DNA of 35,503 nucleotides from a virus (IMGVR_UViG_2896595138_000012), one strand, 5' to 3'. Counted from the first letter of the stretch, positions 32,747 to 35,503 are shown. Notes: generated by a model from the letters alone, not told the origin. Made by a program: numbers and translations.

Positions 32747-34418
32747 TCTCTGCATTAACGGCAGGCGTTATCCTGTCGTGGAAGAAAACATCATGTTGCG
32801 TCTCAACGGCGCGGGAACCGGCTTTATCACCATTAACGCCGCCGACAATACTCCCCCGCTACGCGGCAAACCCGTAGAGCTGTCCATCGGTTACAATGAT
32901 CAGCCTGTAAAGTGGTTTTCGGGATATGTGGAAAGTGACAGTTGTACAGGCAGAGGGCTGCACAAGCTGATGGTGCGCGAAGCTGCTGCTATTCTGCAAT
33001 ACCCGCTCAACATCTCCATGCAGCATCCGACGCTGAAACAGGTCGCAGGACACATTGAAGGCAATACAGGTTTACGCATACAACTCCCGAAGGCAGGCTA
33101 CACCACCACTCCGGTCCCTCATCTGACCCACAATGGCAACGGTTATCAGCTGATGGCCATGCTTGGCCGCATATTCAGTATCCCGGATTACGTCTGGTAT
33201 CCGTCGGTTGACGGCATCATCTACGCCGGAAGCTTTGCTGACTGCCGTTTTGCAAAACGCCCTGCCAGATTGCCGGTCGATATCACCAGAGGTGATCACG
33301 GAGCAAATGGCTGGACAATACAGACGATTCCCATGATGCGCCCCGGCGTGGTCATGAACGATCACCGTATAAATCAGGTACAGCTACAGGGCGACAGCAT
33401 GATCATTAGCTGGAGTGATGGCCGTCAGTCGCCCGTACAACGCCAGATCGAAACCCTTTACCCCGAGATAGGCAACAAAACCCACCTTCCACGCATGGGA
33501 CGCGTGATCTCACCAACTGAAAACACAACCCAGGGGGATTTGCATGATGAATTTCGCCCACGCTACGCCGTCAATGTGCAGTTGCTCGACGAGAACGGCA
33601 CCCCCGATAAGAACACACCGGTATATAACGCCGTCCCCGTTCCTGTGCCAATGGCCGGCAATGAATCCGGGATATTCCAGTACCCGCCCCCAGGAACCAT
33701 AGTTACACTGGCCCACGTTGACGGCAGGCCGGATAAACCCATCATCACCGGCACTCACGCCAGCGGCCAGAGTCTGCCGGGAATAAAGCCCGGCGAACAA
33801 CTACAACAGCAACGCGCAGAGGTATTCCAGCGTGTGCATACAGATGGCACATGGCAGCGTGAAACCGATCAGGTTATTCGTGAGAAATCCACCGACCGCA
33901 TCATCCAGAACACAACGGAAACGCGCACCAGTACCACTCGTAATATTACCGTAAAGGCCAACAACACCATAACGGTGCTCGGCACTCATAAGCTGATGAG
34001 CGGCCACATACAGCACATCGCAGACGGTGACTATGCCGTAGCCGCCACGAAGAAACTGATACAGCACGCCGACAGCGCTGAACTCGACGTTACTCACCAG
34101 TGGCAAACCAGCACAGAAAGCACCACCCACAATGTGGCGAAAACGCTGGAAGAAAAGATTGGCCGGATTAAAAAATCCGTCGCTGGCCAGATGCAACAGA
34201 TCATCGCCCCGCAGGTCTGGTTTGGCAGCAATACCATCAACACACTTAACCTCATGCTGGATCTTTGCGACACCGTTCAGCAACTGGCGCAGCTCACCGC
34301 ACAACACACTCATACCAACAACGGGTCGTCACAGCCCACCAACAGCGGCAGCATAGACACGGTGGCATCAATGGCAGGCAACCTGAAAGCGAAGTACAGT
34401 ACCGTGATTAAGCAGTAA
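32730..34418 (+). CDS. Baseplate hub / late control D-like tail protein candidate
   Basis: 562 aa, last gene of the tail operon. Confidence 0.5.
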   Translation: MKPIRDLCINGRRYPVVEENIMLRLNGAGTGFITINAADNTPPLRGKPVELSIGYNDQPVKWFSGYVESDSCTGRGLHKLMVREAAAILQYPLNISMQHPTLKQVAGHIEGNTGLRIQLPKAGYTTTPVPHLTHNGNGYQLMAMLGRIFSIPDYVWYPSVDGIIYAGSFADCRFAKRPARLPVDITRGDHGANGWTIQTIPMMRPGVVMNDHRINQVQLQGDSMIISWSDGRQSPVQRQIETLYPEIGNKTHLPRMGRVISPTENTTQGDLHDEFRPRYAVNVQLLDENGTPDKNTPVYNAVPVPVPMAGNESGIFQYPPPGTIVTLAHVDGRPDKPIITGTHASGQSLPGIKPGEQLQQQRAEVFQRVHTDGTWQRETDQVIREKSTDRIIQNTTETRTSTTRNITVKANNTITVLGTHKLMSGHIQHIADGDYAVAATKKLIQHADSAELDVTHQWQTSTESTTHNVAKTLEEKIGRIKKSVAGQMQQIIAPQVWFGSNTINTLNLMLDLCDTVQQLAQLTAQHTHTNNGSSQPTNSGSIDTVASMAGNLKAKYSTVIKQ

Positions 34419-34545
34419 GTTTACAGATGAGAAGAGGTGCACAGGCAGCCCGGTTTACCGCTCAAGAATCATGCCACAAAATACAGACAAATAAGCCTTT
34501 CGTGAAATTATTCATATATCAATAAATTTCATTCATCGAACCAGA

Positions 34546-34566
34546 CGAAAGCCCGTCGCGACGGGC
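34546..34566. terminator. Hairpin downstream of tail operon
   Basis: GCCCGTC-GC-GACGGGC perfect 7-bp stem about 130 nt after the last tail gene; weak T tract only. Confidence 0.3.
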
Positions 34567-35362
34567 ATTCCCCCAGAAAAACACCCCCCACCAGACGCGC
34601 TGTATCGCATTCTGCGACATGCTTTAAGCAAATAAACGCGCGAGTCCCCCTGAATTCAGCTCGTAACGCCTGAAAGCGTACACGCACGCTACGTGGATAT
34701 TTCACGGCATGATGAGCCCAACACACGGCACGGGCGCAAGCCCCCCGCGCTTGCACTCTTTACGATAAAAATTTTTTGCCAAATAAATTTGTGCAAAACG
34801 ACACTCCAGACCGCGCCAGCACTGGCGCTTTACAAAAAAGCCATCTGGCACAAAGTGTCAAAGATTGCCAGGCTTTGCCAGATTAACGTTAAAAAAGGAT
34901 CTGACAGGAAAATTAACCATATGAAAAACAAAACCATTTTTTGTTTTCGTCATTTTAAAGGATCTGAATGCCGCCAAAGTGCCACATACAGGAACCACAT
35001 AACACAATGAAATAAAAGGTAAAAATAAAACATTGGACAAGGATCGTTTTGGCGCAGCGTTACACAGTTTCACTGTGTAACTATTTTCAGGCGCAAGCAA
35101 AAACCGCTCACGAAAGCAGCGACAAAAGCGGCAAAATTTTAACTTTCGCGGAGAACCGAACGGGTGACGTGAAACTTTACGTAGCAGAGAAGCGGGAAAT
35201 CAGTAGAATAATCGCGGGTGCCTTTCGGCTGATGGTCGGAGGGAATACCCGAAGGCCGGATGTGGAAAGGCCCCGGAAAACATTTCTGTTTAACCGAGGC
35301 CCTAACATATCTACCTTAAGCAAGTGATAGGTTAGCGCCTCTCCAACAAAGGAGCAAGCGCT

Positions 35363-35503
35363 ATGTCGCAAAAATCGCTTACGGCCATCACGTTCTGCGT
35401 GACGGCAATCCTCATCATCTGGATGCTGCACGGTTCGCTGTGTGAAATACGGATGAGCTTCTGGGGAGCGGAGTTTGCGGCGTTCTTACAGTGTAAACAG
35501 TAA
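35363..35503 (+). CDS. hok: Hok/Gef-family type I toxin-like small membrane protein
   Basis: 46 aa; AGGAG RBS; N-terminal TM helix, then SLCEIR and EFAAF matching the Hok/Gef conserved core (SLCEIR ... EVAAF). Confidence 0.55.
   Translation: MSQKSLTAITFCVTAILIIWMLHGSLCEIRMSFWGAEFAAFLQCKQ

Follow-up and report, generated by a model that had tools for sequence, protein, structure and literature searches.

hok/sok is the textbook type I toxin–antitoxin (TA) system, in which the antisense RNA Sok blocks translation of mok and hok is translationally coupled to mok. Here we describe a hok locus at the right-hand end of a 35,503-nucleotide viral stretch of DNA, IMGVR_UViG_2896595138_000012 (hereafter the window, read directly from position 34,300 to its end), with the region of interest at positions 34,419–35,503. 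We consider, with a probability of roughly 70%, that the locus is a hok/sok-type type I TA module, an accessory gene near the right end of a prophage, in which hok is controlled directly and without mok. In the R1 system, saturation mutagenesis showed that mok has to be translated up to the hok Shine-Dalgarno sequence (SD), and mutations of the mok start as well as upstream nonsense mutations abolish toxicity (PMC9841398). Another described relative is hokW-sokW of the Shiga toxin 2 (Stx2) prophage Sp5, a functional type I TA system with a helping role in phage release (Takada et al. 2021, PMC8621323). At the protein level, Escalera-Maurer et al. catalogued 6290 Hok homologues in IMG/VR; their survey covered coding sequences (CDSs) only, and Mok, Sok and the mRNA were left aside since Mok prediction is ambiguous (bioRxiv 10.1101/2025.08.07.668861).

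The toxin gene and its ribosome-binding site (RBS) lie at the very end of the window:
35363–35503, plus strand: hok CDS, 46 aa, Hok/Gef family; its stop codon is the window end
35349–35354, plus strand: hok SD, AAGGAG, 8 nt 5' of the ATG

The open reading frame (ORF) encodes MSQKSLTAITFCVTAILIIWMLHGSLCEIRMSFWGAEFAAFLQCKQ (46 aa) and scores 29.9 bits with Pfam PF01848 (HOK_GEF), for which the curated cut-off is 22 (E = 4.1e-7; residues 7–44 align with profile positions 5–42 of 42). The 46-aa frame with its RBS and the assignment to Hok/Gef, both made in an initial annotation of this DNA from sequence alone, are thus confirmed. The peptide contains one hydrophobic stretch, LTAITFCVTAILIIWML, as expected of a family with a single N-terminal helix. 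Seven Hok residues are conserved in >80% of 1264 peptides (M1, C16, T18, L30, C31, E32 and E41 in logo numbering; 2026 preprint, bioRxiv 10.1101/2025.08.07.668861), and all seven are present in the window Hok, as M1, C12, T14, L26, C27, E28 and E37. Consistently, RefSeq labels the ORF 'Hok/Gef family protein' in Escherichia coli VL40, which is 100% identical to the window across the region of interest.

The window Hok is identical to the catalogued peptide 72_1621, and the variant found in Stx phages is 72_1589; both belong to cluster 72, a 'high abundance cluster', and both were in the published toxicity test set. Among the 45 homologues in that set, the non-toxic ones were 19_179, 60_1482 and 69_1540 only, and 72_1621 was reported to be toxic on overexpression from a foreign promoter and SD (bioRxiv 10.1101/2025.08.07.668861). 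The hok CDS is intact and under purifying selection, with a ratio of non-synonymous to synonymous change (pN/pS) of 0.11–0.39 against its relatives. The window ORF is a genuine, already catalogued gene for a membrane toxin of the Hok/Gef family. That it might be a chance ORF in ordinary intergenic DNA by the prophage end would suit its length of 46 aa, but this explanation has practically no weight left: it is already refuted by the family matches, both Pfam and hok leader, and it faces a module found in up to 1750 genomes and the published toxicity of the identical peptide.

The feature that sets this locus apart lies just upstream of the toxin frame:
35317–35335, plus strand: stop-codon cluster closing all three frames (TAA at 35317, TGA at 35325, TAG at 35328 and TAG at 35333)

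All three frames are closed 28–46 nt 5' of the hok ATG, the hok frame itself at 35333–35335, and no ORF beginning with ATG, GTG or TTG crosses the hok start in the window copy. At the canonical mok start position, 7 nt past GAGG, there is an AUA (35308), which is not a start codon. The initial annotation had likewise seen no mok-like overlapping frame, and for the window copy this holds. It had described the frame from 35320 to 35445 as open and free of ATG, GTG and TTG; the frame is indeed open, but it does contain a GTG, its sole start-type codon, in last position. What needs correcting more substantially is the treatment of the missing mok as peculiar to this copy, as it is a trait of the whole Hok subfamily, cluster 72.

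This became apparent when 88 related loci, taken from IMG/VR and GTDB genomes, were set against a control of 78 prophage loci of the HokC/W-like type (positions below are counted from the hok ATG). A start codon 4–11 nt after GAGG occurs in 1 of 46 unique subfamily leaders; in the control leaders, an ATG stands at −56 to −59 in 47 of 49 unique sequences and an ORF crosses the hok start in 49/49. No ORF passes over the hok start in 30 of the 62 unique subfamily sequences, as against 0/49 in the control, and 15 of the 21 more divergent members have no spanning ORF. In addition, the interval from −60 to −15 contains stops in every frame in 24/46 unique subfamily leaders.

The remaining sequences raise the question of a displaced mok, starting at the ATG at −130/−131 or −103 (35232 or 35260 in the window), of which the window copy would be a frameshift or nonsense variant. 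Such a frame can be drawn in 32/62 unique relatives, from ATG −130/−103 or TTG −46, ending at +80 or +131. A common version has precisely the length of R1 mok, 70 codons, and both upstream ATGs are nearly invariant. Both ATGs, however, are conserved because they lie inside conserved helices, and neither is preceded by a recognisable SD. The −103 ATG is gone in several divergent members (GGAAAGACG in loci L177, L206 and L207). Moreover, the conserved upstream ATGs stand 101 to 105 nt from the hok ATG, depending on the leader, and all values modulo 3 occur, so that no reading frame is preserved. We consider a displaced mok quite improbable. The same Hok peptide is encoded behind leaders with and without a long overlapping ORF. 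Together with the subfamily counts and the purifying selection on hok, this argues that absence of mok is a property of the clade and not an accident of the window copy. It is a genuine, clade-wide departure from the R1 paradigm, and probably one that has so far gone undescribed.

To see how hok might be controlled in such a locus, the leader has to be considered as an RNA. The predicted elements of promoter and leader are:
35204–35209, plus strand: putative −10 element of the hok promoter, TAGAAT, aligned to the P88 and Stx-phage copies
35216–35362, plus strand: 5' leader of the hok mRNA, 147 nt, with a predicted transcription start at ~35216 and a match to Rfam RF01794
35216–35230, plus strand: tac, GGGUGCCUUUCGGCU, partner of fbi while the mRNA is full-length or of ucb once the 3' end is processed
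35266–35274, plus strand: ucb, AAAGGCCCC, partner of the GAGG region (closed form) or of tac (open form)
35296–35341, plus strand: Sok-target hairpin, with GAGGC (35296–35300) pairing at its base with GCCUC (35337–35341)
35333–35363, plus strand: anti-SD hairpin (−13.4 kcal/mol), pairing GGAG of the hok SD with CUCC and taking in the A of the ATG

A search with hok/sok RNA models, which the initial annotation had proposed as a check, supported the family assignment: RF01794 ('sok') matched the plus strand at 35216–35373 with E = 1.6e-8 and 44.8 bits, short of the gathering score of 59. Scores elsewhere were 42.1 bits for the Stx-phage relative, 118.3 for K-12 hokC and 114.1 for a HokW-like locus. 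At the K-12 hokC locus (L003 602–754), RF01794 fits the sense strand, covering the 157 nt of hok mRNA between its 5' end and the hok start, not the strand annotated as sokC, and the model is therefore in effect a hok-leader model; although it is named 'sok antitoxin', its matches are best read as hok leaders. By this match the window leader reads as a divergent member of RF01794. Since the subfamily leader scores below the gathering threshold, it is missed by RNA-model annotation.

GAGGC at 35296–35300 corresponds by homology to the mok SD, and GCCUC is common to the Sok-target hairpin and the 5' arm of the anti-SD hairpin. The 3' partner of the leader, fbi (GGCUGAAGUGGCACCC), lies directly 5' of an intrinsic terminator; both are outside the window, 50–115 nt past its end. 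Upstream of fbi, a protective stem-loop is found in VL40 (L001 5094–5117), as in R1. The hok mRNA would thus run from ~35216 to the terminator ~115 nt past the window end, a predicted length of ~405 nt. Pairing of tac with fbi, likewise suggested for checking, cannot be detected from the window alone because fbi lies past its end, but it was found in the genomic copy: for L001 4798–5207 (410 nt, spanning the mRNA), the minimum free energy (MFE) fold has z = −8.8 and pairs nt 1–15 (tac) with nt 337–352 (fbi). Across 29 variants, 92% of cells in the tac–fbi helix are standard pairs, against 30–42% in slid controls. The corresponding values are 98.5% for tac–ucb and 85.5% for the Sok-target hairpin, with slid controls at 30–53% overall.

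Upstream of the −10 element, relatives carry a −35 element TTGCCG; a comparison of promoter variants across loci shows TAGCAG at that place in the window copy. The replacement arises because the conserved module starts between −35 and −10. A stringent promoter scan did not pick up the hok promoter.

The antisense strand of the leader carries the second component of the module:
~35321 to 35258, minus strand: predicted Sok RNA, ~64 nt, its ends placed by homology to R1 Sok and sokW
35329–35357, minus strand: putative Sok promoter, −10 TAACCT (complement of 35329–35334) and −35 TTGCTC (complement of 35352–35357), 17-nt spacer

The layout of R1 Sok was the guide in placing the predicted RNA. Its fold consists of an unpaired 5' tail, a stem-loop and UUUCC (−25.2 kcal/mol, z = −3.1), and it is complementary to leader positions 43–106. 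The arrangement TTGCTC-17-TAACCT is kept in nearly all related loci, with the −35 element overlapping the hok SD as in R1. The site altered by the primers for the promoter-less sokW mutant likewise contains TAACCT (PMC8621323). Stringent promoter and terminator scans did not list the predicted Sok promoter or RNA. Judged by homology and promoter conservation, an antisense Sok gene is present upstream of hok, within the leader, with its promoter and RNA as predicted features. The initial annotation had placed a possible antisense RNA in the AT-rich region upstream of hok; the predicted RNA does lie upstream of hok, but inside the 147-nt leader (~35258–35321, minus strand) and not in the AT-rich spacer. 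As a separate observation, the loop and 5' arm of the Sok-target hairpin (35306–35328, corresponding to the Sok 5' tail) are by far the most variable part of the module, and their flanks are nearly invariant (alignments A3 and A5). Such variability would fit a diversified Sok–hok recognition among co-resident copies, of which there are up to 9 per genome.

Folding of these elements points to a possible mode of direct control. The anti-SD hairpin (nt 118–148 of the mRNA) and the Sok-target hairpin (nt 81–126) are isoenergetic, at −13.4 kcal/mol each, and compete for GCCUC. In the fold of the full-length RNA, ucb holds GAGGC and the anti-SD hairpin is closed. Imposing tac–ucb pairing on the 3'-truncated RNA yields a fold that contains the Sok-target hairpin, has a nearly unpaired SD and lies only 2 kcal/mol above the unconstrained minimum. 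For 42/42 variants, local folding gave GGAG a mean unpaired probability of 0.23 in this open state and of 0.00 with the Sok target sequestered; in the HokC/W control the values are 0.67 versus 0.66, independent of the state of the Sok target. Compensatory changes at the ucb/GAGG pairing are seen in L207 and L208, and in L207 a C to U change in ucb, a G to A change in GAGG and a C to U change in the anti-SD arm occur together and preserve both alternative helices. Over the 29 variants, two-sided changes are modestly above shuffled controls for the processed structure and not above them for the full-length structure.

Based on these folds, we propose the following working model. In the full-length mRNA, tac would pair with the 3' fbi and keep the RNA closed. 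After 3' processing, tac would pair with ucb instead, so that GAGGC could join GCCUC in the Sok-target hairpin; this hairpin would take the 5' arm away from the anti-SD hairpin and so expose the hok SD directly. Binding of Sok to its target would release GCCUC, the anti-SD hairpin would re-form and translation would be turned off. The Sok duplex would probably also be cleaved by RNase III. Extended to the clade, the model would mean that the cluster 72 subfamily has dispensed with mok and that a three-state RNA switch governs the toxin RBS, with Sok acting by release of the anti-SD strand and not by blocking a leader peptide. We put forward this broader version tentatively, at clearly less than even odds.

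Several points weigh against direct control without mok. Unconstrained folds of the full-length, the processed and the Sok-bound RNA all leave the SD closed, and the switch stays a hypothesis because its open form appears only when tac–ucb is enforced. The local-folding measure is crude: for canonical loci, known to depend on mok, it finds the SD largely unpaired and so misses that dependence. With relatives this close, there is little covariation. An ORF from the ATG at −130 or −103 over the hok start is present in about half of the relatives. The −35 element of the relatives is lost in the window copy, so that its expression level is uncertain, and by analogy with R1 the window copy could be silent. 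Finally, our literature search returned no paper on a mok-less hok clade, and older hok literature outside that search may describe such loci.

Some of the same observations would suit a locus that is a translationally dead relic of a mok-dependent ancestor, kept by hitch-hiking or just as a supplier of Sok against related hok mRNAs in the same cell. In R1, hok depends strictly on mok being translated as far as the hok SD (PMC9841398), and the MFE folds of both full-length and processed RNA close the anti-SD hairpin; the −35 element is replaced in the window copy, the prophage looks degraded (ISEc20 in the window, IS1 in the VL40 integrase), and a genome may hold up to 9 copies. A dead relic is hard to square, however, with an intact hok CDS at pN/pS 0.11–0.39, with an identical peptide on leaders with or without a spanning ORF, and with a strong, conserved SD. 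Among the relatives, tac, ucb, fbi and the Sok promoter are all conserved as well, and the canonical mok start is absent from 45/46 unique leaders, not just from the window copy. We regard the relic as unlikely, and retain a directly controlled, mok-less module as our preferred reading.

The part of the locus that is widely conserved extends from the −10 element to fbi, that is 35204–35503 plus ~115 nt past the window end. It has matches in 1750 of 5426 complete E. coli genomes, or about one third, weak matches included; 240 of 1760 matching records are at only 60–80% identity. The module is also present in phage P88, other Xuanwuvirus phages, a Citrobacter phage and many Stx phages. Within the subfamily it is carried mostly on P88-like and Stx prophages, with up to 9 copies per E. 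coli genome. Candidate roles include prophage retention, exclusion of other phages and help with lysis as reported for hokW.

The window itself runs from the stop codon of the phage integrase to the stop codon of hok. Many IMG/VR provirus contigs (L008, L010, L014 and others) end at the very same base, the hok stop, and this boundary is therefore a product of gene calling and not of biology. Because such gene-boundary trimming removes fbi and the terminator, the locus is misjudged from trimmed contigs. The element in VL40 is bounded by direct repeats of 121 bp, of which one adjoins the integrase and the other overlaps the 3' end of the tRNA-Leu gene leuZ. The E. coli prophage is integrated at leuZ, and hok is an accessory gene close to its right end. 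The right attachment site (attR), which the initial annotation had considered placing upstream of hok, accordingly lies at leuZ, ~950 bp past the window end and outside the region of interest; a location in the AT-rich spacer was ruled out by the position of the 121-bp repeat at integrase and leuZ.

Between hok and attR, VL40 carries on the minus strand (L001 5274–5555) a 93-aa gene matching phrog_27544 (function not assigned; E = 7e-58). It also matches weakly a moron family described as 'membrane associated protein' and may be another accessory gene. A second, degenerate hok remnant stands before attR at L001 5838–5945, ~475–580 nt past the window end: a sequence resembling the Sok-target leader, ggaaaaatcccaaaaaaatttttgtttaacagaggtcct, is fused straight to hok codons 24–30 (GSLCEIR). 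From this junction, the remnant looks like an internal deletion of SD, start codon and transmembrane part. Inside the prophage, window positions 12102–13559 are 99.7% identical to ISEc20 (IS110 family). Apart from this stretch, the 24-kb structural region lacks close DNA relatives among 50,697 phage records; for the prophage as a whole, the best matches were to an ISEc20 copy. In VL40 the integrase is split by IS1A (L092 13128–13825), an insertion that is absent from the window, and the VL40 prophage copy is probably unable to excise.

Between the tail genes and the hok module lies a spacer with the following features:
34419–35203, no strand: spacer of 785 bp, from the end of the last tail/baseplate gene (Vgr-like, ending at 34418) to the hok module
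34894–34904 and 34957–34967, no strand: two exact copies of AAAGGATCTGA, 63 nt apart, with an A/T hairpin at 34925–34947 between them
35059–35081 (L001 4641–4663), plus strand: terminator-like hairpin with a 10-bp stem and a 3-nt loop, followed by TATTTTC

The spacer is not part of the hok module. It was found in 6 of the 5426 complete E. coli genomes and in two IMG/VR contigs, all of one prophage lineage, and had no match in phage records or among the 172 other loci fetched by then. Its five ORFs (35–105 aa) have no Pfam or PHROG match, RefSeq annotates nothing in it, and Rfam gave chance-level matches only. The evidence is consistent with the earlier description of some 900 bp of non-coding DNA upstream of hok, except that the last 147 nt are the hok mRNA leader and not spacer. 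That description also called the region AT-rich, which is true of ~34800–35200 only (GC content 0.37–0.43); 34419–34800 has a GC content of 0.46–0.50. The hairpin and the duplicated motif noted there both exist, at positions slightly different from those first given: the hairpin is at 35059–35081 (not 35058–35080) with a stem of 10 bp, not 9, and the repeats begin at 34894 and 34957, not at 34885 and 34949. By our own arithmetic, ~0.17 exact 11-mer pairs are expected by chance within 1.2 kb, which makes the repeat only weakly significant. The hairpin between the copies is formed by AAAACAAAA and TTTTGTTTT, and each repeat holds a GATC site. Leftward terminator-like hairpins occur at 34551–34566 and 35103–35120 (minus strand), with no recognisable minus-strand gene between them.

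Taken together, the gene, its family and the toxicity of its peptide were known, and the regulatory variant is probably new and undescribed. If the reading is correct, an abundant mok-less Hok clade with a reportedly toxic peptide would mean that mok coupling is not universal. Such a clade would provide a simple comparative system for antisense control of a toxin by mRNA refolding alone, and the missing mok makes a specific RNA-switch hypothesis testable.

Compared with hok/mok/sok (parB) of R1, the window locus shares a small Hok/Gef membrane toxin, a predicted mRNA of ~400 nt, and predicted tac–fbi with the alternative tac–ucb pairing. Its GAGG-bearing Sok-target hairpin, its putative antisense RNA of ~64 nt with a promoter over the hok SD region, and its protective 3' stem-loop followed by fbi also resemble those of R1. 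Unlike R1, it lacks a mok ORF and any start codon past GAGG, it carries stops in all three frames, and its hok SD is enclosed in a strong local hairpin that has its 5' arm in common with the Sok-target hairpin. Divergence of the leader keeps it under the Rfam gathering score (45 versus 59 bits), and the 46-aa Hok ends in FLQCKQ, whereas the 52-aa R1 Hok ends in AYESGK.

With hokW-sokW and K-12 hokC-mokC-sokC, the window locus has in common the hexamer TAACCT, here the putative Sok −10 element, and the overall leader plan, and the hokW locus is likewise prophage-borne. HokW, at 51 aa (MKQQKAM...), belongs to another Hok subfamily; with the related K-12 HokC, the window peptide shares 28% identity. 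Among HokC/W leaders, 47/49 unique sequences have both a spanning ORF and an ATG at −56 to −59, and scores with RF01794 are 114–118 bits. Identity of the window gene with hokW of Sp5 was considered and rejected, as the primers and peptide in PMC8621323 correspond to a HokC-type Hok. The entry 'MokW-like host killing' in RefSeq phage records is a mere label on a Hok ORF. In its proposed logic, the window locus would be the same as aapA/IsoA of Helicobacter pylori (mentioned in PMC9841398) and further type I systems that have no leader ORF, where the toxin SD is freed or hidden by alternative mRNA folds and 3' processing and the antisense RNA works with no leader peptide coupled to the toxin; the toxin and RNA sequences are unrelated, and the resemblance that we propose here would be one of mechanism only.

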